A DNA stretch of 64,000 nucleotides from a candidate division FCPU426 bacterium (lineage in GTDB: Bacteria > Oederibacteriota > JAAXVQ01 > JAUVAV01), in the NCBI GenBank assembly GCA_030637655.1, contig DAOWGI010000027.1, positions 57,576-121,575 on the forward strand, read 5' to 3'. Position 1 is the first letter of the stretch; the number at the start of each line of letters is the position of its first letter. Under the pieces are notes generated by a model. That model saw only the letters and a program-made list of their open reading frames with translations. It was not told the origin of the DNA and made no database searches. This document shows positions 6,132-19,615 of the stretch, one piece after another. Position numbers and translations under genes: made by a program.

Positions 6132-7910
6132 TTACCAAGTGGCTTTTCTTCGACCCTCTGGTTGTTGCTGTCGCTTCTGCATGCGTTTTCGGTGCGCGTC
6201 TTTTTCCGCCTCGCGCACCGCGTCGAGTATTGTTTCCGCTTCTTCCGGCCGCATCTCTCCCGGCCGGGGTTTTTTTGGCTCTTTCTCCTCCGGTGTGTTC
6301 TGCTCTTGTCCGGAATCCGCTTTTTGCTCGCCTTTATCATCCGCTTGGTCCGGCTCTGATTCGTCTTTGGACTTGCGCGGATCCTGATCCTTTAGATCCT
6401 GCTCTTTTTTCCGCCCACCAGCTGATTGCTGCTGCTGATTTTTCTGATCCTGCTTATCATCTTTGTTCTGTTGCTCTTGTTGCGACGACGGATTTTTCAG
6501 CATTTGAATCGTCTGAGCTAAATTATAAATCGTATCCTCATCCTGGGGAGCTAATTTTAAAGCTTCCCGGTAATGTTTGGCTGCTTCCTGATATTTTTGG
6601 GAGGCAAAATACGTATTTCCCAGGTTGTACAAAATTTCAGCGCGCATTTTTTCATGCTTACTCTTTAATGCCCGTTGATACGATTTTTCCGCCTCGTCAA
6701 AGCGTTCTTGCTGATGCAGGCTGTTTCCAATATTATAGTTCACCTTGGGCTCATCCGGACTTTTAATTTGCGCCTCCCGGTAGGCTTCCAGCGCTTCTTC
6801 GTATTTGCCTTGTTTATATTTGCGATTTCCTTTATTAACCTCCTCGGCCGTGCCGGCCCAAGCTAATTGCGGTAATAATAGCATAACCAGAAATATAGTT
6901 AACCAGGAACCTTTCCGTTTTGGTAACCAAAAAGCAAAAAGCAATAATAATAACGCGGGCAAAAGTACATATTGATAGCGATTCTCGTTTGCTCCGTATT
7001 GTCCGCCGGTCACCTCCCGTTTTCGCATTTGCGCTATAAGATCCACAATTTGTTTGGCTTCTAAGCTGCCGTGATGCGCCGGTAAGTATACACCCCCTGT
7101 CATATCCGTGATTTTTTTTAAAGTTGCTTCATCCAATCGGGACATCACAGTTTTTCCATTTTTATCTTTAACATAATCGACGATCTCACCTTTGGCATTA
7201 CGAATCGGTATGGGCTCCCCGCCGGGAGATCCGAAACCAATACTGAGTATTTTCACTCCCGCGGCTTTAGCTTCTTGGGCAGCTTCTATGACTTTCGAAT
7301 CATGATCCTCTCCATCGGTTAGCAAAACCAAAACACGGTAGCCTTCTGATCCCTCAGGAAAAATTTCCAAGCCGGCCCTAATGGCGGTCCCCAATTCGGT
7401 CCCAGCCACAGACACGGATTGGGGAGATAAATAGTTTAAAAACATCTTGGCCGCAACATAATCCGTAGTCAGAGGACAGGCCACCTGAGCGGAGCCGGCA
7501 AAAGCAATGATTCCGACCCGATCCCCGCCCAAATGATCAATAAACGCTCCCAGTTCTTGCTGCGCGCGTTCCAGGCGATTGGGACGAACATCTTCAGCCA
7601 ACATGGATTGTGAGACATCCAAGATAATAATGACATCCACACCTTGCCGTAGCACTTCCACCATTTTCACCCCATATTGTGGTCCTGCCAATGATAACCC
7701 GAGCAGAAATAACCCCGCCAAGAGTGCCAGCCCTTTTAGAACCCGGCGAGTATTGGACAGGTCTTGTATCAATTGGTCCACCAAAGACTGATTTCCAAAA
7801 ACCCGCAGATCGCGTTGGCGTTGCCAGCGCGCCCACAGGGCAATGATTACCAGAGCGGGCAGCAGAATTCCCAACACCAGGTAAAAAATAACCGGGTAAA
7901 CAAATTGCAT
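6132..7910 (-). CDS. VWA + TPR protein (BatB-BatC fusion)
   Basis: LAGPQYG, MIDAS DVSQS, PLTTD and LLTDGEDH (BatB), followed by TPRs, a Q/K/D-rich low-complexity linker and EEAETILDAV...W end (BatC); start MQFVYP after GAGG. Confidence 0.85.
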   Translation of the reverse strand: MQFVYPVIFYLVLGILLPALVIIALWARWQRQRDLRVFGNQSLVDQLIQDLSNTRRVLKGLALLAGLFLLGLSLAGPQYGVKMVEVLRQGVDVIIILDVSQSMLAEDVRPNRLERAQQELGAFIDHLGGDRVGIIAFAGSAQVACPLTTDYVAAKMFLNYLSPQSVSVAGTELGTAIRAGLEIFPEGSEGYRVLVLLTDGEDHDSKVIEAAQEAKAAGVKILSIGFGSPGGEPIPIRNAKGEIVDYVKDKNGKTVMSRLDEATLKKITDMTGGVYLPAHHGSLEAKQIVDLIAQMRKREVTGGQYGANENRYQYVLLPALLLLLFAFWLPKRKGSWLTIFLVMLLLPQLAWAGTAEEVNKGNRKYKQGKYEEALEAYREAQIKSPDEPKVNYNIGNSLHQQERFDEAEKSYQRALKSKHEKMRAEILYNLGNTYFASQKYQEAAKHYREALKLAPQDEDTIYNLAQTIQMLKNPSSQQEQQNKDDKQDQKNQQQQSAGGRKKEQDLKDQDPRKSKDESEPDQADDKGEQKADSGQEQNTPEEKEPKKPRPGEMRPEEAETILDAVREAEKDAHRKRMQKRQQQPEGRRKATW

Positions 7911-7943
7911 ACTTAAATCATCCTCTCTGAGAATAGAACAAAA

Positions 7944-8189
7944 GAGCAATAGAAAAAGCTCAATTGCGGTAACATGTCAGTCATGCGTTTTTTTGTTTAT
8001 CATCCATGAATGCAACCCCACCCTGTCATCCCCGAATGCTCTTATCGGGGATATGGTTTAAAAAACCAGATTCCTGCCGAATGCGTCCCTATATATCTTT
8101 TCCGGTCGGGGCCGATTAAACCCTCGGGAATGACAACCTTTGTTAACCGCAATTCGCTGACATGTTACTACTAAATGCTCAAGCTCCTA
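7944..8189. mobile_element. Nested miniature inverted-repeat element (outer shell + TA-flanked inner MITE 7972-8165 + REP doublet)
   Basis: TA|ACATGTCAG...CTGACATGT|TA; internal GTCATCCCCG...CGGGAATGAC; outer end CTAAATGCTCAAGCTCC|TA; near-identical to 10261-10494 and 12509-12672. Confidence 0.75.
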
Positions 8190-9176
8190 GGGAATACGTC
8201 GAAAAACGGTTTGCTGTAACAAGGCGCCCAGCACCAATAATAAAAATCCCGCAGCCAACCAGCCGAAATACAGATCCCGATAGCTGGTGAATTCCACAAT
8301 CTTGTATTCGCTTTTTTCCATGCGATTGATTTTTTCGAATATTTTTGCCAAGCCTTTGGGGTCTTTGGCGCGAAAATACCTGCCATTGGCCGCATTGGCC
8401 ACCCGTCTCAGGGTCTCTTCATCCAGGTCATTTTTCATGGGTACCATACGTGTTCCGTACACTGGATGCTGCATAGGCATCAAACCACCTTCCAACGACC
8501 CTGCGCCTACAGCATATATCTTAATCCCCAGTGCGGCCGCAGCCTTGGCGGCTGTCACCGGATCAATCTGACCCATATTGTTTCGTCCATCGGTCAGAAG
8601 CAGGATAACCCGGCTGGCAGCTTTGGATTCACGCAAGCGATCCGCGGCTGTCGCAATGGCCATACCAATCGCCGTGCCATCCACTTCAGTCATATCAATT
8701 GCAACATGCTTCATATATTCCAGCAAGGCTCTTTTATCCGAGGTCAAAGGGCTCACAGTCATGGAGGTCCCTCCAAAAACAACTAAACCTATTCTGTCTC
8801 GTACACGACTTTCGATAAATTTGAGCGCCACTTCTTTGGCCGCGCCTAAACGATTCTGGGGTTTAAAATCCACGGACCGCATGGAACCTGAAGTATCCAG
8901 ACACAGAATAATATCCACACCTTTGCCTGAAATTTGTTCGGTCTTAAGCCCAAACTGGGGACGAGCCATAGCCGTTACCGTTAAACATAAACCAATAACC
9001 GTAAGCAGCCCTATGATCTCATCCGGACCCAGCCTGGTTTGGGAAACGCTCTTTTCAATACCAGTCAATTCAGGGAAGCGAATCCCGTTCGGTTTGCGTG
9101 CCCGCAACCACCACAATACTGCTAATCCGGCAATTGGAAGCAGAAGTAAAAACCACCAGGGATTCGCGAACTTCAT
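8187..9176 (-). CDS. batA: BatA VWA domain protein
   Basis: MKFANPWW N-terminus, ARPQ, MIDAS DTSGS, GTAIG and LLTDGRNN, C-terminal RRIP; ATGA overlap with the upstream gene. Confidence 0.9.
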   Translation of the reverse strand: MKFANPWWFLLLLPIAGLAVLWWLRARKPNGIRFPELTGIEKSVSQTRLGPDEIIGLLTVIGLCLTVTAMARPQFGLKTEQISGKGVDIILCLDTSGSMRSVDFKPQNRLGAAKEVALKFIESRVRDRIGLVVFGGTSMTVSPLTSDKRALLEYMKHVAIDMTEVDGTAIGMAIATAADRLRESKAASRVILLLTDGRNNMGQIDPVTAAKAAAALGIKIYAVGAGSLEGGLMPMQHPVYGTRMVPMKNDLDEETLRRVANAANGRYFRAKDPKGLAKIFEKINRMEKSEYKIVEFTSYRDLYFGWLAAGFLLLVLGALLQQTVFRRIP

Positions 9177-10201
9177 GGCTTCTGTTTCTCCTCTTGCTCC
9201 TGTTGTTGTGTTTCCTGCATTATCCGCGTAGTATGCTCCACGGCTTCGTAGATTTGTATCCAATCCGCTTGCGCTTCTTTTTCCATTGGCTGAAATTTAG
9301 CAAACTTGACCATATCACTTTGTTCCAATACATTACGAATCGCATTCACATCCTGGCGGGGGATGGCTGTTCCTTTGATTTCCCGCAGCAACTCATGTGT
9401 CGTGCGATCAATGGCCGGAATACGGAACTGGTTTTCAATGTAATGTCGTGCTATCCCTGACAGTTCACTATAATACTTCTTCCATTGCCCCTTTAAAATA
9501 AGCGTTGAGTTTCGCAAAGCCAGCAAGCGTTCTTTGGCAATTTCATCGGCCGGCCGGGTCGGCGCTGCCGACGCTTCGGTCTGTTGCCTTAGCTTACGAT
9601 ATCGGTCAAACCAAAACAGCGCCGCGGCAAGCACACCTGCTGCCAACAACACACTGCCCAGCAACCACCAGGACGTCATTCCTCGCGGATCCTTAAGACC
9701 GCGTATTTTTCCCGGTTCATCATTCTCTCGTGGCAACAGGTGCTTTACTTTAATTATTATCGGCGCAGAATGAAATTCCGAAGCTTTTCCATCCGGGCCG
9801 GAAAACTTTTGGATCAAAGCGGGTATCTGCACTTCTCCTGACACAAAGGTTTGCAGAGTTAAAATATCTTTACGCACAAATTGCCCGTTCACATAGTCGG
9901 GTTTGCCAAGTTGGGCATACACCACTTCCCAATCATTTAGTGTTTCCGGATACTCCATTTTTTCCAGCGTGATCGAGGGTTGCGCTTCAACCAAAACCTC
10001 CACGAGCACACGATCCCCTATTTTGGGATTTTCGGTCATGGGTGTAAGTGTAATACGCATTGGACCCTGAATGTCCGGACAACGCCTGGCAGTCACTGTG
10101 GCGCTGATTGCGTCAGCTGCTCCGCGCTCTATTTTCACGGCTGAACCAGAACCCGGCAGCCCTAACACTATGGCAATAAATAACAGCACTATTTTTTTCA
10201 T
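9173..10201 (-). CDS. Membrane-anchored protein of the MoxR/Bat operon (DUF4381-like)
   Basis: Signal peptide, TM helix, then YYSELS..RHYIE...DRTT.EL...SDMVKFAK, typical of the gene between DUF58 and batA. Confidence 0.75.
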   Translation of the reverse strand: MKKIVLLFIAIVLGLPGSGSAVKIERGAADAISATVTARRCPDIQGPMRITLTPMTENPKIGDRVLVEVLVEAQPSITLEKMEYPETLNDWEVVYAQLGKPDYVNGQFVRKDILTLQTFVSGEVQIPALIQKFSGPDGKASEFHSAPIIIKVKHLLPRENDEPGKIRGLKDPRGMTSWWLLGSVLLAAGVLAAALFWFDRYRKLRQQTEASAAPTRPADEIAKERLLALRNSTLILKGQWKKYYSELSGIARHYIENQFRIPAIDRTTHELLREIKGTAIPRQDVNAIRNVLEQSDMVKFAKFQPMEKEAQADWIQIYEAVEHTTRIMQETQQQEQEEKQKP

Positions 10202-10260
10202 GTTCTTATCTTCATTTCGTTCCTGGTTTCTTCGCTTCAATCTCCGGGCTGAGTACTTCC

Positions 10261-10494
10261 TAGGAGTTTGAGCATTTAGTCTGTTTTTTGGTAACAGGTC
10301 AGTCATGCGTTTTTTTGTTTGTCATCCCCGAATGCAGCCCCCACCCTGTCATCCCCGAATGCTTGTATCGGGGATACGGTTTTAAAAAACCAGATTCCTG
10401 CCGAATGCGTCCCTATATATCTTTTCCGGTCGGGGCCGATTAAACCGTTCGGGAATGACAACCTAAAAAAACCGCCTAAATGCTCAAACTCCTA
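10261..10494. mobile_element. Nested MITE: outer TIR GGAGTTTGAGCATTTAG with TA flanks, carrying an inner ACAGGTCAGT element and REP doublet
   Basis: TA|GGAGTTTGAGCATTTAG (10263-10279)...CTAAATGCTCAAACTCC|TA is a perfect 17-bp inverted repeat; the interior matches 7972-8138. Confidence 0.8.
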
Positions 10495-11370
10495 ATGGAA
10501 CCGTTTGGCACGCATGCGAAAGAACTTAACTAATGGTCCAATATATGACCGATCGGTCTGCAATTCAATTCCATCCATATTTATTTTTCGGAACAGATCA
10601 CGTCGCGCTTCCCGCTGATCCCGGTTATATTGAGCATAGGCTTTTCGAACTGCCGCCGAACCGGTCGGCACCAAACGACTGGTTCCCCGTTCCGAATCCT
10701 CCATAACCACATACGGAATGTTTGGCAAGGTCTCTTCCCGCGGATCACGTATTTCTATGGCAATCACATCATGCCTGCGGTTGGTCACAGCCAACGCGCG
10801 TTCATAGCCGTGGACATGGAAATCGGAAATTAAGAAAACAATGCAGCGCCGCTTTAAAACCTCATTTAAATACTCCAGAACGGGATTGAAATCCGTGCCG
10901 TGACCTTCGGGTTGCGCGTATAGCACATCCCGCAAAATTCTGGATAGATGCGAGCCGCCCTTGGCCGGCGGAATAAATTTTTCAATTTGATCAGTAAACA
11001 ACAATGCGCCTACGCGATCATTGTTTTTAATGGCCGTATAACTGAGCACTGCCGCGATCTCTGCTGTCATTTCCGCTTTGGTTTGCGATTGCGTACCAAA
11101 TCTTTGTGAGGCCGAAGCATCCACCAACAGCATAATATTAAGTTCGCGTTCCTCAGTAAATTTCTTGATGTGCGGATGTCCGGTGCGCGCGGTAACATTC
11201 CAATCAATGGCACGAATATCATCTCCGGGAAAATACTCCCGAACCTCATCAAATTCCATGCCTCGTCCTTTGAACACACTCTCATATTGACCGGCAAATA
11301 TTTCGTTTACAATACGGCCGGTTCTAATTTCCAGACGCCTGATTTTGGCAATGATTTCTTTGGGTAACAT
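10492..11370 (-). CDS. DUF58 domain protein
   Basis: GRGMEFDEVREY.PGDDIRAIDWNVTAR and EERE..I.LLVDASAS motifs. Confidence 0.92.
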   Translation of the reverse strand: MLPKEIIAKIRRLEIRTGRIVNEIFAGQYESVFKGRGMEFDEVREYFPGDDIRAIDWNVTARTGHPHIKKFTEERELNIMLLVDASASQRFGTQSQTKAEMTAEIAAVLSYTAIKNNDRVGALLFTDQIEKFIPPAKGGSHLSRILRDVLYAQPEGHGTDFNPVLEYLNEVLKRRCIVFLISDFHVHGYERALAVTNRRHDVIAIEIRDPREETLPNIPYVVMEDSERGTSRLVPTGSAAVRKAYAQYNRDQREARRDLFRKINMDGIELQTDRSYIGPLVKFFRMRAKRFH

Positions 11371-14117: not shown

Positions 14118-14242
14118 AAAATTAACCGCCGATGAACGCAAATAAACGCAGATATTTATAGCCTAATGGATAAAAAAGATTTTAATTTGCGTGTATCCGC
14201 GTGTATCGGCGGCTAATTTTGGTTCCGGTTTATCCGGGTTAG
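14118..14242. repeat. Imperfect palindromic element with ~10-nt periodic arms plus GGTTCCGG...CCGGGTTAG terminus
   Basis: AAAATTAACCGCCGATGAACGCAAATAAACGCAGAT...ATTTGCGTGTATCCGCGTGTATCGGCGGCTAATTTT; the 22-nt terminus matches 38329-38350. Confidence 0.65.
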
Positions 14243-15702
14243 GGACGCAAAAAATTAATGGTTTTTAATCGTTCCAACAAAGATCCTTTGGTGCTTCCCT
14301 CTCCCAGGGATAAATCCGAAACCACAACTTCTCCAATAATTATTTTACGATCTTTTTTTGGTTTGTCCAACACCCGATACGCCCAAATATCATGTATCGC
14401 GTAGTATATATCTCCTTCGCTCCCAAGATAAAGCATGATATGTCCGGGAAATTGCAGCAGCACCGGATGCTTGATCTTGTTCAGTTTTGCTTGTCTTTGC
14501 CGCGTATTGTTCTTCCTGGCAAACGTATACCGGCCGCTTCCTACCCTGGCTTGGGACGACGAATTGCGAGGCAAAATAAATCCCATGGTGGCATACACAT
14601 CCATTATCACTTGTGAGCAATCCCGGTACTCATTCATCCCGCCCCAAGCGTATGGTGTGTGTAGGAGTTTGAACGCCTGTTGACATATATTACGTGGCGT
14701 ATATGCCAAGTACCCTTGGTGCACATCCGCTGCTCGGGAAATATATATTTTCCGACGAATAATATCACCGTTCTTCTTTTTTTTCGGAAATCCGACAACA
14801 TAATATGCTTTCGTTCTGCCCAGCAAGGGACACACGGTTCCCATATAGAGTTTCTCCGCCACTATGGTGGTGCCGGGCGCTTCAACTGCTTCCACCTTAT
14901 GTCCGGTAATCACAAGAAAACGCTTAGGCTTGATATACCGCTCCAATTTTTTTGGATTGCAGTCTTCTAAAATATCACTCCGTTTTATCCAGCCACGACA
15001 ATACGCGGTGACCACAAATACCCAGGCTTGATCACGACTGCTGTGCATAATGGCCAGGGGTTGCAGAGCCCTGACTGAGGAGACTTGTACAATGTCAAAA
15101 TTTACATTCCAACGCTTTCCGGTGACTAAAAGCTCAGTCGGATAATATCGCACATTGGTTCTTCGCAGGGTGAGTCCATATCGAACCGGATTGTTTTCCT
15201 GAATGGCGTTCAGATTCAGGTTGTCATCCAAAGCGGCAAATGTTTTCTGACAAATCGGCTCTCCTCCACTATCCCACCGCTGTTTGCGTTTGATCCGTTC
15301 GGTCTCGTCTTTGAGATAAGTATATAGTGTATACCCTTCCAATATACCCGGGCTATAGGCTGAAGGACGTTCCAAATTCCATTCCCACTCCGGATTGTCC
15401 TCTCCGGGTCGATCGACCTCCACATAGCGATAATCCCATAATTTATCCGTAAACACATTGGTCAACAAACCCCGCGTGATATTTTTGCGATTGATTTTCC
15501 TGATTTGCTTTTTTGTGAGCAATAAGTGATCGCGAAAAATATATTTGTTTATCCAATATTCGGGCTGATCCATTTCCAAAGTACAATTAAACAACGGCAG
15601 TGTTGCCCGCTCTTGATAAGGCGGGCCTGCTGGAATCTGCAGCGAAGCGCAACCAGACAGATTGACGAGCAAAAAGCAGAGGATAATATATTTTCGCAAC
15701 AC
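14239..15702 (-). CDS. Lipoprotein NlpC/P60 peptidase with SH3b-like domains
   Basis: Lipobox LSGC; PYAWGG...RDCSQ, FPGHIML and AIH; C-terminal VSDLSLGEGS.KGSL shared with the neighbouring paralog. Confidence 0.85.
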   Translation of the reverse strand: MLRKYIILCFLLVNLSGCASLQIPAGPPYQERATLPLFNCTLEMDQPEYWINKYIFRDHLLLTKKQIRKINRKNITRGLLTNVFTDKLWDYRYVEVDRPGEDNPEWEWNLERPSAYSPGILEGYTLYTYLKDETERIKRKQRWDSGGEPICQKTFAALDDNLNLNAIQENNPVRYGLTLRRTNVRYYPTELLVTGKRWNVNFDIVQVSSVRALQPLAIMHSSRDQAWVFVVTAYCRGWIKRSDILEDCNPKKLERYIKPKRFLVITGHKVEAVEAPGTTIVAEKLYMGTVCPLLGRTKAYYVVGFPKKKKNGDIIRRKIYISRAADVHQGYLAYTPRNICQQAFKLLHTPYAWGGMNEYRDCSQVIMDVYATMGFILPRNSSSQARVGSGRYTFARKNNTRQRQAKLNKIKHPVLLQFPGHIMLYLGSEGDIYYAIHDIWAYRVLDKPKKDRKIIIGEVVVSDLSLGEGSTKGSLLERLKTINFLRP

Positions 15703-17313: not shown

Positions 17314-17533
17314 GGCGTTTTTTTATCCTTGGATTGGAAATCAAAGCATTAGTTACTCTATTCAGAATAACCACTTATTTTTCTGTAGCTTCTTACTCTT
17401 CTTGATTACTATTAGTATGAAACCCCTGCCGCTTTCTAAAAACACCTTTGTTTTATTCGGTTTTTATTCTGTTCTCATTGTGAATCAATAATAATTGATT
17501 TTTAAACGTCCCGCACCACATACCTGGTTTGAA

Positions 17534-17569
17534 ATAAAAATCCCACAGGCGTGCGCCTGTGGATTTTTA
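17534..17569. terminator. Intrinsic terminator downstream of the two small ORFs (probably bidirectional)
   Basis: AAAAATCCCACAGGCG-TG-CGCCTGTGGATTTTT, a GC-rich hairpin with A/T tails on both sides. Confidence 0.7.
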
Positions 17570-17622
17570 TCAATATTTATACGTTTTGGAAAAACACTTC
17601 CCAATCTATCTGTTTTCTATTA

Positions 17623-17832
17623 TTAATCATAAGCACCTTGATCAACCTGCCACCAGGGAAAATATAGTCTCCATCTCATTTTCGGACTCCTTAAGGCCGC
17701 TCGCAATTTTTGTCGCGGGTCTTCATTACCATGTAGATATATCGCTCTTGGTTGAATTTGATATCCCACTGTTTCTGCAGTGCGTAAATGACCTGGTTCC
17801 CAAGTCAGTGATTGTAGTCGCCTGGATCGCAT
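17623..17832 (-). CDS. Small protein (69 aa), FPWW-motif paralog 2
   Basis: RBS GGAGAGGGG 4 nt before the ATG; shares LxWxP and W...FPWW motifs with the upstream ORF. Confidence 0.6.
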   Translation of the reverse strand: MRSRRLQSLTWEPGHLRTAETVGYQIQPRAIYLHGNEDPRQKLRAALRSPKMRWRLYFPWWQVDQGAYD

Positions 17833-17856
17833 TGTACCCCTCTCCGCAAAGAATGC

Positions 17857-18054
17857 TTATTCTGTTTTTAAACGCCACCAGGGAAAAAAGTCTGCAATTT
17901 GCCAGTCATTGTCAACTCGCTTGACTGTACTGGATTGCTGGTAATAATCTGATCGATGTACAGTGGTTTTTTTCCATAGAAGCGCTGGGTGTGTGCTACC
18001 TTCCGGATACCAAGCCAGACGCCCAGGTACTGTTTGGTTAATTTCTCTTGGCAT
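17857..18054 (-). CDS. Small protein (65 aa), FPWW-motif paralog 1
   Basis: GGGGGG RBS 6 nt before the ATG (MPREINQ...LAWYPEG...WQIADFFPWWRLKTE); directly behind a sigma-54-like promoter. Confidence 0.6.
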   Translation of the reverse strand: MPREINQTVPGRLAWYPEGSTHPALLWKKTTVHRSDYYQQSSTVKRVDNDWQIADFFPWWRLKTE

Positions 18055-18080
18055 GATCATCCCCCCGTACACTTCAATAA

Positions 18081-18096
18081 AGCAAAATGCATGCCT
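18081..18096 (-). promoter_or_regulatory. sigma-54 (-24/-12) promoter
   Basis: AGGCATGCATTTTGCT = GG-N10-GC, close to the consensus TGGCACG-N4-TTGCW; predicted +1 falls just before the RBS. Confidence 0.65.
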
Positions 18097-18176
18097 GCTT
18101 TTTTCCATTTTACCTTCGTCGAAAAACTTTAAATATCAATCGTTTTTTTGACTGTTCTTTTTTACAGCTAAACTTT

Positions 18177-18214
18177 GCTCCTGAAGTATGTAACCAATTC
18201 CACACTTCAGGAGC
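18177..18214. promoter_or_regulatory. Inverted repeat, candidate enhancer (UAS) or hairpin
   Basis: GCTCCTGAAGT-N16-ACTTCAGGAGC, ~80-120 bp upstream of the -24 element. Confidence 0.4.
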
Positions 18215-18289
18215 TTTCACTATGGAATGCACTACCCTGTTCAATATTTAGAATTTAGAATCCGGTTATTGGCGCTAAAAACGATCGCC

Positions 18290-18586
18290 TAGGAGTGTGA
18301 GCAATTAGTCGGTTTTTTGTAATATATTAGCCGTTCGGTAGTTACGTCTACTTGCTTGAAAAGCCCTGAGGTCTGGTTCTTTTTTCAAAAAAGCGAGGTT
18401 TCAGGAAATACCACTATTATTAATAAGTTTTAACCGGCTTCGTACTATGATTACGCTAGCTGTTCCCGATTACTATTTAATGCCGTTAGCGTTTTGAAAA
18501 AAGAACCAGACCTCAGGACTTGCACTGAACAGCTAATATATTACGATTTTTTTAATTTCTGAGCAATTGAGTTTTTTTATTGCTCT
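18290..18586. mobile_element. Nested MITE (same outer shell as 7944-8189, different cargo)
   Basis: TA|GGAGTGTGAGCAATTAG; inner TA|ATATATTAGC...GCTAATATAT|TA; perfect 26-bp inner IR 18365-18390/18492-18517; the GCAATTGAGTTTTTTTATTGCTC end matches the reverse complement of 7944-7967. Confidence 0.7.
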
Positions 18587-18717
18587 ATTGGCCAATTGGT
18601 GAATTGTAAACACAAGTGCAACATTACGGGATTAAAAAAAGAGTCCCTTTACTCAACAAAACCTGATAGCGTGTAGGTGTGAACCAAACACTAAAACCAG
18701 GGGAGCAAAGGCACAAT

Positions 18718-18756
18718 AAAAAAGGGCTAAGGAGTTTTGTCTCCCCAGCCCTTTTT
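18718..18756 (-). terminator. Intrinsic terminator of the ktr operon
   Basis: AAAAAGGGCT...AGCCCTTTTT hairpin ~14 nt after the ktrA stop. Confidence 0.65.
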
Positions 18757-18769
18757 CAATAGCTACGCC

Positions 18770-19615
18770 TTATCCCTTATGCAAACGATCCAATTTTTTC
18801 AGATCCTCGTCCCGGCCCAGGATCACCAGGGTGTCATCCTTGCCAACCTCATGATCCGGGGTAACCAAAACATCATAATACGCTTCCTCGTGACCCACAC
18901 CTTCTTTATCCAGCTCCAACTTCCTGTGTTTTAAGGCGATCACATTCACATTGAACTTATTACGCAATTTGGTCTCGCGCAGGGTTTTACCAATAATATC
19001 CGCCGGCGCCGGCACTTCCACCACAGAAATCCCTTCCGCCAACTGGAAATAATTCAGAACTCTGACTGCTGTGAGTTCACCAACCAAGTCAATGGCAGCT
19101 TCCCTTTCCGGAAACACAACCCGGTCAGCTCCCACTTTGTCCAGAATTTTCGCATGCAGAAGATTAGTAGCTTTGGCAATAATTTCCGGCACATCCAATT
19201 CCTTTAAGATCATCACAGCCAAAACCGAGGCCTCAATATTTTCACCGATAGACACGATGGCTGAATCCACGGCATCTACACCGGCAGCGTGTAAGGCTTT
19301 GACATCTGTTACATCAGCAGTAAGGGATTGGGTAACCAGATCTGACATTTCTTCAATACGTTCGGAATTGCTATCTATAGCCAATACTTCTACTTTGGCG
19401 CGAATCAACGCTTCAGCTACATTTTGCCCGAAATTACCAAGTCCCAAAACAGCAAACGAACGCCGTTTTTTAGATTCCATTCGCGTGGACAATGGCCGCA
19501 CTGATTTTAACCAATCGTCAAATTTAAACCAATCCAGATCCTGTTTTACAGTATTTTTGCCATTGGCTTTGGCACCTGCGGCTTTACCGCTCTTTTTCTT
19601 TTTGGACGCGCTCAT
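18770..19615 (-). CDS. ktrA: TrkA/KtrA potassium uptake RCK subunit
   Basis: FAVLGLGNFG Rossmann motif, GADRVVFPE and a C-terminal RCK_C (GKTLRE..LR..FNVNVIALK); ~50-aa N-terminal extension. Confidence 0.9.
   Translation of the reverse strand: MSASKKKKSGKAAGAKANGKNTVKQDLDWFKFDDWLKSVRPLSTRMESKKRRSFAVLGLGNFGQNVAEALIRAKVEVLAIDSNSERIEEMSDLVTQSLTADVTDVKALHAAGVDAVDSAIVSIGENIEASVLAVMILKELDVPEIIAKATNLLHAKILDKVGADRVVFPEREAAIDLVGELTAVRVLNYFQLAEGISVVEVPAPADIIGKTLRETKLRNKFNVNVIALKHRKLELDKEGVGHEEAYYDVLVTPDHEVGKDDTLVILGRDEDLKKLDRLHKG

Follow-up and report, generated by a model that had tools for sequence, protein, structure and literature searches.

A small-gene unit with a sigma-54 promoter beside a degenerate enhancer-binding protein is probably the orphaned front end of a lost flagellar rod operon

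The window analyzed here, a 64,000-nt stretch of contig DAOWGI010000027.1 from a candidate division FCPU426 bacterium (assembly GCA_030637655.1; hereafter G000), carries on its minus strand two tandem small open reading frames (ORFs), ORF1 (P0001) and ORF2 (P0002), both with FPWW near their C-terminal ends. They stand behind a putative sigma-54 promoter and beside the gene of an NtrC-family enhancer-binding protein (EBP) that lacks the motifs of a working activator. A preliminary description, made from the sequence alone, read the two ORFs as paralogous members of an unannotated microprotein family whose Trp-rich motif might dock on this neighboring regulator. The locus thus raises the question of whether small genes and regulator are partners, or whether something else brought them together. 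We find that the unit probably once formed the promoter-proximal end of a flagellar rod operon and is now orphaned, next to the inactivated regulator of the same flagellar island.

Both ORFs were re-found in the sequence with their own ribosome-binding sites (RBSs) and a common 14-nt DNA core around FPWW; the 24-nt spacer between them contains GGAGAGGGG, the RBS of ORF2. Compared directly by BLASTP, the two proteins align over only 7 residues, the FPWW heptad (E 0.008), and the duplication must therefore be old. Their paralogy, weak in this direct alignment, is supported by a profile built from six other members, with the window sequences excluded, which matches P0001 at E 7.8e-8 over 48 columns and P0002 at E 1.1e-4 over 19 columns. 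P0002 also matches the copy in the relative G002 (P0003) at E 5e-5 over residues 4-64. We define the family as proteins of 60-70 amino acids (aa) in which an N-terminal W-x3-W(Y) is followed after ~12 residues by a third Trp and the C-terminal part carries (F/Y)(F)PWW, and both window ORFs fall within this definition. Core members carry an N-terminal Trp-rich YKYxIWNSxWYKK and a C-terminal FFPWWR; in ORF2, a His replaces the second Trp of the N-terminal motif.

The family is small. Searching 1.84 billion representatives with a profile of five sequences returned 11 proteins at E<=1e-3, nine of them 60-69 aa long with YKYxIWNSxWYKK-like and FFPWWR-like motifs and two of them repeat-protein false positives, while a 5.8-billion 90%-cluster search gave 12 matches among 67 candidates. 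The cluster search also yielded P0015, a 71-aa orthologue of ORF2 (~71% identity by hand count) in which the blocks IYLHGNEDPRQKLR and MRWRLxFPWWQ are fully conserved. At the level of the phylum, 4 of 99 genomes match, all in the window's own family (f1). A related-locus search with narrower alignments brought back only two known genomes and nothing from metagenomes, and an Atlas search with a family protein gave no usable match. In G000 itself, a scan for short ORFs ending in PWW gave nine candidates, among which ORF1 and ORF2 are the only family members. No Pfam-A or NCBIfam model matches P0001, P0002, P0003, P0012 or P0014, and against Pfam at E<=0.01 P0001 and P0002 have no match, FlgM and FliX included. 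In the full-text literature, among the matches listed, the string FPWW occurs as a peptide only in tritrpticin-type antimicrobial peptides, and none of the papers so listed deals with flagella or sigma-54. From these searches, the FPWW proteins form a tiny, undescribed family of about a dozen members among billions of proteins; the two ORFs already exist as predicted proteins in public collections, which corrects the word "unannotated" of the preliminary description.

Where these genes stand in related genomes tells more about them. Whole-genome searches of relatives found single ORFs of 65-67 aa with like architecture in G002, G005 and G008, in each case directly 5' of flgF. Between the G005 and G008 copies, the ratio of nonsynonymous to synonymous substitution rates (dN/dS) is 0.149 in frame, while the two remaining frames give 0.65 and 4.1; in these genomes the family thus codes for protein under constraint, with homologs conserved at the level of codons, a point on which the preliminary description had let its reading depend. 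The G005 operon, by Pfam, runs small gene-flgF-flgG-flgA-flgH-flgI-orf99-flgM-flgN-flgK, and FlgM (PF04316) and FlgN are thus encoded separately from the FPWW protein. In G006 the equivalent position holds a 65-aa ORF with WY...W...PW spacing, whose hhalign match (E 0.099) leaves it assigned by position. In four flagellated genomes of the family, the flgF-flgG-flgA-flgH-flgI operon opens with the 65-67 aa copy, and these four (G002, G005, G006 and G008) are also the genomes, out of 11 in the family, in which FlhA and rod proteins are found. In G000, a 91.55% complete genome, searches for four independent markers (FlhA, rod proteins, flagellin and FliG) missed all of them. No flgF homologue that the window unit could head was found there either; the place of the unit between trkA and the EBP gene corresponds to the left end of the flagellar island in G006 and G002. 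The AlphaFold model of P0001 is essentially unstructured (mean predicted local distance difference test score 61.5, predicted template modeling score 0.16).

The control region connects the window to the same flagellar regulon. rpoN is present in G000 as an open 494-aa frame on contig C15 (Sigma54_DBD, E 1.1e-62), and the GG-N10-GC element and terminator of the preliminary description were both re-found. The element, AGGCATGCATTTTGCT, agrees with 14 of 16 positions of a TGGCAC-N5-TTGCW-like 16-mer, its GG and GC doublets 10 nt apart. Taken alone, the sigma-54 consensus does not exceed chance, since the window holds 27 matches at <=2 mismatches where 39 are expected. A 16-mer with intact GG and GC is present 56-63 nt before the start codon at all five related loci, compared with 42 nt in the window, and it is because the element is conserved at homologous loci and the enhancer is shared that we place the window promoter above chance. 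The designation of a sigma-54-type unit is thus upheld.

The enhancer emerged from the same comparison. The palindrome ATTCCATA-N16-TATGGAAT was noticed upstream of the promoters and then searched in five genomes; among the matches listed, those of G006 lying outside them, it precedes the flgB, fliL and FPWW-flgF units across G002, G005 and G008. Copies with zero mismatches lie before the sigma-54 promoters of the flgB and fliL-fliM operons in G005 and of the fliL operon in G002. Another zero-mismatch copy in G002 lies ~0.8 kb upstream of the flgB/flgC region, placed by coordinates only, and one more precedes P0014, a second family member of G002; the G002 FPWW-flgF unit has a copy with one mismatch. 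The window sequence at 18228-18197 is likewise one mismatch away. At <=1 mismatch G000 holds two sites, vs 0 for 13 control patterns, and five aflagellate relatives hold none even at <=2 mismatches, except for one 2-mismatch match, which equals the control count. The other G000 site (L066, C48:1529-1560, one mismatch) falls within an OmpA-like ORF of 767 aa, and no sigma-54 element could be seen to follow it; we took it for a chance match. The 11-bp inverted repeat that the preliminary description had taken for the upstream element does exist, but the enhancer role falls to this palindrome, which it partly overlaps. The IHF-like site proposed as part of the same layout did not stand: one such match is at chance level (118 matches vs 104 expected), and no exact IHF site occurs in eight related promoter regions.

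Comparison of gene order explains how the unit and the regulator became neighbors. In G006 one contig carries trkA (925.5 kb), a histidine kinase gene, the small ORF (928.1 kb), the flagellar genes from flgF to flhA (970.2 kb), the EBP gene (972.3 kb) and, further on, NlpC/P60 (978.1 kb). The order in G002 is an SNF symporter gene, a gene x, trkH, trkA, two histidine kinase genes, P0014, two methyltransferase genes, a radical SAM gene, a WYL gene and Cas3, followed at a distance by the FPWW gene and flgF, by flhA, the EBP gene and fliA, and lastly by two NlpC/P60 genes. The window, in turn, reads SNF symporter, x, trkH, trkA, repeats, ORF1, ORF2, EBP and two NlpC/P60 genes. Between small gene and EBP a flagellar island intervenes, which in G006 measures ~45 kb and in G002 ~75 kb. 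Set against these orders, that of the window argues that the island was cut out between its first unit and its regulator, and that the genes between the EBP and NlpC/P60 have gone too. Because deletion of ~45-75 kb of flagellar genes explains why ORFs and EBP adjoin, their adjacency is not evidence of a partnership.

Other aflagellate relatives can be compared over the same interval. In G003 and G009, the distance from trkA to NlpC/P60 is 1.4 and 2.1 kb with only a kinase gene in between, which shows a more complete loss of this island. G004 retains in this interval a kinase gene, a degenerate EBP gene, a gene for a FliA-like sigma factor (7200-8111) and another kinase gene; no FPWW gene and no enhancer were found in it. 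The trkA-side kinase has orthologues of 52-54% identity in G005, G006 and G008, while the best match in G000 reaches 33%.

The regulator next door, which the preliminary description had called a pseudo-EBP, is indeed degenerate. Its Pfam domains are those of a response-regulator EBP (REC 2.1e-15, AAA+ sigma-54 interaction 1.5e-38, HTH_8 6.3e-11), and its NCBIfam scores (FlgR 327 bits, FlbD 326 bits) fall below the cut-off of 750, with no equivalog cut-off reached. Its best relatives, at 44-46% identity, are found in exactly G002, G005, G006 and G008, where they start 75-97 nt after flhA; other matches reach at most 37%. Alignment with these orthologues shows GAFTGA replaced by TEAAGY, Walker B LFLDEIG by LFIKDIE, the arginine finger FRED by FHQD, the phospho-acceptor LDLRLPG by LELRMPD, and DDEPE by DFDVE, whereas the G002, G005 and G006 orthologues retain all four catalytic and signaling motifs. 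The losses are domain-specific. Identity between the window protein and its orthologues is 31-35% in REC and 40-41% in the AAA+ core, as compared with 77-85% and 72-76% among the flagellated orthologues, while in the HTH it is 72-78% as compared with 82-85%. We conclude that the window EBP has apparently lost its signaling and ATPase functions and conserved its DNA-binding domain. Firing of a sigma-54 promoter requires an EBP with GAFTGA and Walker B. The ATPase and GAFTGA of a competent activator are lacking here, and none of the seven other EBP-like genes of G000 is tied to the site.

These observations suggest the following history. In the flagellated relatives, the NtrC-type response-regulator EBP encoded after flhA would bind ATTCCATA-N16-TATGGAAT, as co-occurrence and the conserved HTH suggest, and would then activate flgB, fliL-fliM and flgF transcription from the sigma-54 promoters of these operons. 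The flgF operon starts with a 65-67 aa, predicted-disordered protein with two Trp-rich motifs, whose ancestral role, at our best guess, was that of a cytoplasmic flagellar accessory or checkpoint factor acting through these two linear motifs. The lineage of the window would then have deleted the island that lay between trkA and the NlpC/P60 genes. Enhancer and sigma-54 promoter survive together with the EBP gene and two small-gene copies that have diverged, and it is the deletion that would have made them neighbors. The EBP has since lost its motifs for ATP hydrolysis, sigma-54 contact and phosphorylation and kept its DNA-binding domain. Because of this pattern of loss and retention it would at most occupy the enhancer, and the promoter would be silent unless cross-activated by another EBP.

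Constraint on the two ORFs at present was assessed from one strain contig of 625 nt covering 17618-18242, which differs at 20 positions, 19 of which were used. ORF1 has four amino-acid and two silent changes in it, and ORF2 four changed codons, including P59S inside FPWW. Over both ORFs, the ratio of nonsynonymous to synonymous polymorphism (pN/pS) is 1.0 (9.3 nonsynonymous vs 2.7 synonymous); an omega of 0.15 is rejected (p 0.005), but the data are compatible with one of 0.3 (p 0.08). Substitutions are as dense in the ORFs (2.9%) as in the intergenic part (3.7%). The enhancer half-sites and the -24/-12 element are unchanged, which, given seven intergenic substitutions, is expected about a quarter of the time and is not counted as evidence. 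In our reading, constraint would be much weaker here than in the flagellated relatives, although decay is not proven.

Several points weigh against an orphaned remnant. Given the completeness of G000, its flagellar genes are "not found" rather than proven absent, and one of the four operon-heading copies, that of G006, rests on position. Both ORFs are open in every strain contig examined, and the contigs themselves are of ~4x depth, so that errors are possible among the 12 ORF substitutions. The conserved blocks of P0015 argue for some long-term constraint. No RNA run among the listed sequencing runs contains the stretch, while DNA contigs from other studies do. Despite its heavy divergence, the EBP gene is still a full ORF of 476 codons. 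The second degenerate EBP, in G004 (L075, C230; 5701-7200), lacks GAFTGA, has LILKEVG at Walker B (Lys at the Asp position), has lost the REC Asp and keeps its HTH intact, and it shares derived residues with the window EBP, which suggests that both may descend from one degenerate ancestor maintained since. Because of the full ORF and these common residues, the regulator appears to have been maintained and the module may be in use.

This last possibility forms the most serious rival, namely that the dead EBP and the two microproteins were kept after flagellar loss because they function together, the EBP sitting on the old enhancer as a repressor or as a regulator of sigma-70 type, and the FPWW proteins docking through their Trp motifs as partners or effectors, which takes in the docking idea of the preliminary description. 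The conserved HTH beside vanished catalytic motifs, the second degenerate EBP with common derived residues in another aflagellate genus, ORFs intact in all strains with a conserved orthologue for ORF2, and the lack in G000 of any other intergenic enhancer within one mismatch would all fit, and atypical EBPs without GAFTGA and Walker B residues are described as working with sigma-70 (PMC6158489). However, the deletion already accounts for the adjacency, G004 keeps its degenerate EBP without FPWW gene or enhancer, pN/pS between strains is ~1 with one change inside FPWW, and an EBP so altered cannot fire a sigma-54 promoter; we consider such a retained module unlikely. In a bolder version, flagellar sigma-54 activators would have in the FPWW proteins a new class of small, disordered partners that report basal-body assembly via their Trp motifs, as functional analogues of FliX or FlgM, and dead EBP and two partners would have been kept here as a rewired, flagellum-independent switch. 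We regard this as distinctly unlikely; a complex prediction for the G005 EBP with its own FPWW protein (score 0.00) is evidence neither way.

The remaining rivals concern the small genes alone. ORF2 has tandem Trp codons close to its 3' end and a terminator 60 nt past its stop, which could suggest a leader-peptide attenuator that senses Trp-tRNA supply and gates read-through into the EBP gene, and a His_leader match does cover 17532-17644. Yet that match, at 22.8 bits vs a gathering score of 49 (E 0.5), is sub-threshold, all Rfam matches being far below their gathering scores and at chance level; the ORFs are 65-69 aa long with a conserved N-terminal motif, the low in-frame dN/dS of the relatives extends over the whole length, and flgF comes next after the gene in relatives, where inspection by eye showed nothing resembling a terminator, which makes attenuation scarcely credible. 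The Trp-rich peptides might instead be precursors of ribosomally synthesized and post-translationally modified peptides (RiPPs), the substrates of tailoring enzymes, since two methyltransferases and a radical SAM enzyme follow P0014 in G002 after 14 nt; the N-terminal WNSxWYK presumably recalls Trp-crosslinked peptide cores. No tailoring enzyme lies near the window genes (neighbors trkA, EBP and NlpC/P60) or the flgF-linked copies, however, the G002 cluster sits within an insert that also carries CRISPR-Cas, and P0014 lacks FPWW, so that a RiPP role is very improbable. Short length, a low-confidence fold and the lack of a known family would also suit chance ORFs in a non-coding leader; frame-specific constraint, profile matches obtained independently of the window sequences and the presence of RBSs refute this for the family, and leave it next to no probability. 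The orphaned end of a flagellar rod operon remains the reading that we prefer.

Table 1. Features of the locus in window coordinates.
Feature	Position	Strand	Remark
ORF1 (P0001), 65 aa	18054..17857	-	C-terminal end DFFPWWRLKTE; G-rich RBS 18066-18061
ORF2 (P0002), 69 aa	17832..17623	-	C-terminal end LYFPWWQVDQGAYD; G-rich RBS 17845-17837
Putative sigma-54 -24/-12 element AGGCATGCATTTTGCT	18096-18081	-	GG 18095-18094, GC 18083-18082; predicted start ~18070
Putative enhancer (upstream activating sequence, UAS) ATTCCATA-N16-TGTGGAAT	18228-18197	-	One mismatch from the palindrome of relatives' flagellar sigma-54 operons
Inverted repeat, 14-bp hairpin	18214-18177	-	Overlaps right half of UAS
IHF-like site, one mismatch	18134..18146	+	Treated as chance
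Intrinsic terminator-like 9-bp GC-rich hairpin and T run	17563-17542	-	Scored on both strands
Degenerate orthologue of flhA-linked flagellar EBP, REC-AAA+-HTH_8, 476 aa	15883..17313	-	HTH kept; GAFTGA, Walker B DE, arginine finger and phospho-Asp lost
Scar left border, multi-copy repeats resembling miniature inverted-repeat transposable elements	18230..18770	.	Relatives have a histidine kinase gene here
trkA, left syntenic anchor of former flagellar island	18770..19615	-	
SH3b-NlpC/P60 lipoprotein, right syntenic anchor	14239..15702	-	

Beyond the features of Table 1, the EBP gene is followed on its 3' side by a second SH3b-NlpC/P60 gene, and trkH lies beyond trkA on the 5' side of the small-gene unit. 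The inverted repeat overlapping the enhancer is unique in the genome and folds as a hairpin (dG -25 kcal/mol, z -4.0) with no U-run after it. Six of the seven intergenic substitutions of the strain contig fall within its 38 nt (p 4e-4); they comprise two fully compensatory pairs, one G.U to G.C change and one change in the loop, so that the stem is never broken. The hairpin itself thus appears to be under selection.

Further observations concern the surroundings. The 540-nt gap between trkA and the enhancer consists of repeat fragments found on many G000 contigs (C69, for instance, matches with 79% identity across 229 nt and C34 with 87% across 118 nt), with a spike in read depth at 18284-18320. 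An AT-rich palindrome (arms AATCAA...TTGATT) at 17483-17500, between terminator and EBP gene, may be an operator or promoter element of the latter. In G002, the second copy P0014, whose C-terminus has drifted to FLNWF with loss of FPWW, has its own enhancer and sigma-54 promoter and heads the two methyltransferase genes and the radical SAM gene, beside a WYL regulator and a type I CRISPR-Cas locus (L072, G002:C2, region ~6800-10900); the whole may represent either a cluster of RiPP type or an insert which took over the promoter. The G005 flgB operon likewise has an extra first gene behind its enhancer and sigma-54 promoter, an ORF of 172 aa (L070, G005:C3, 2097-2615) that matches FlgN weakly (E 3.9e-4).

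The arrangement in the relatives resembles the "middle" operons under RpoN and an EBP in the FlgR, FlrC, FleR and FlbD hierarchies, where an upstream enhancer and a -24/-12 promoter precede rod, ring and switch genes and the regulator is likewise an NtrC-family EBP encoded inside the flagellar cluster. Unlike in those systems, the structural genes are gone from the window genome, and nothing is left of the arrangement except enhancer and promoter, the leader genes and the regulator, itself dead. This regulator is comparable to the atypical EBPs without GAFTGA of which PMC6158489 gives VpsR, TyrR, HupR, PhhR, HsfA and NtrX; like VpsR and the other five in that account, it lacks GAFTGA and the Walker B Asp-Glu and keeps its HTH. 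It differs from them in being the orthologue of a working flagellar EBP in a genome where no flagellar genes were found, and in that the one good intergenic site it has lies in front of a promoter, of the sigma-54 type, which it is unable to activate.

For the small proteins, the nearest functional model is FliX of Caulobacter, described in PMC3096577 as a trans-acting partner of the sigma-54 activator FlbD that couples flagellar assembly to EBP activity by direct binding. As far as that account goes, FliX shares with the FPWW proteins that it is a small protein of a flagellar cluster without enzymatic domain. There is, however, no sequence relation (no Pfam or NCBIfam match), and the FPWW protein is half the size and predicted to be disordered. 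FlgM, the secreted, disordered anti-sigma-28 factor, is similarly small, disordered and of the same operon family, but the FPWW proteins do not match it, and the G005 operon has a separate FlgM. A FliX-like role of the family is the most interesting possibility that the data allow.

In sum, these results extend the sigma-54 flagellar regulon of an uncultured lineage, seen in cold-seep metagenome runs, by a small protein not described before, and they define the enhancer sequence of that regulon. The locus offers a clean example of how a flagellar island disappears, in which the leftover first unit and the regulator, now side by side, mimic a purpose-built pair of regulator and target. For annotation it is a warning that adjacency at a deletion scar is no evidence of partnership. 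The domain-specific decay of the EBP, seen in two aflagellate genera, would represent a natural case of a working enhancer-binding protein becoming an atypical one.

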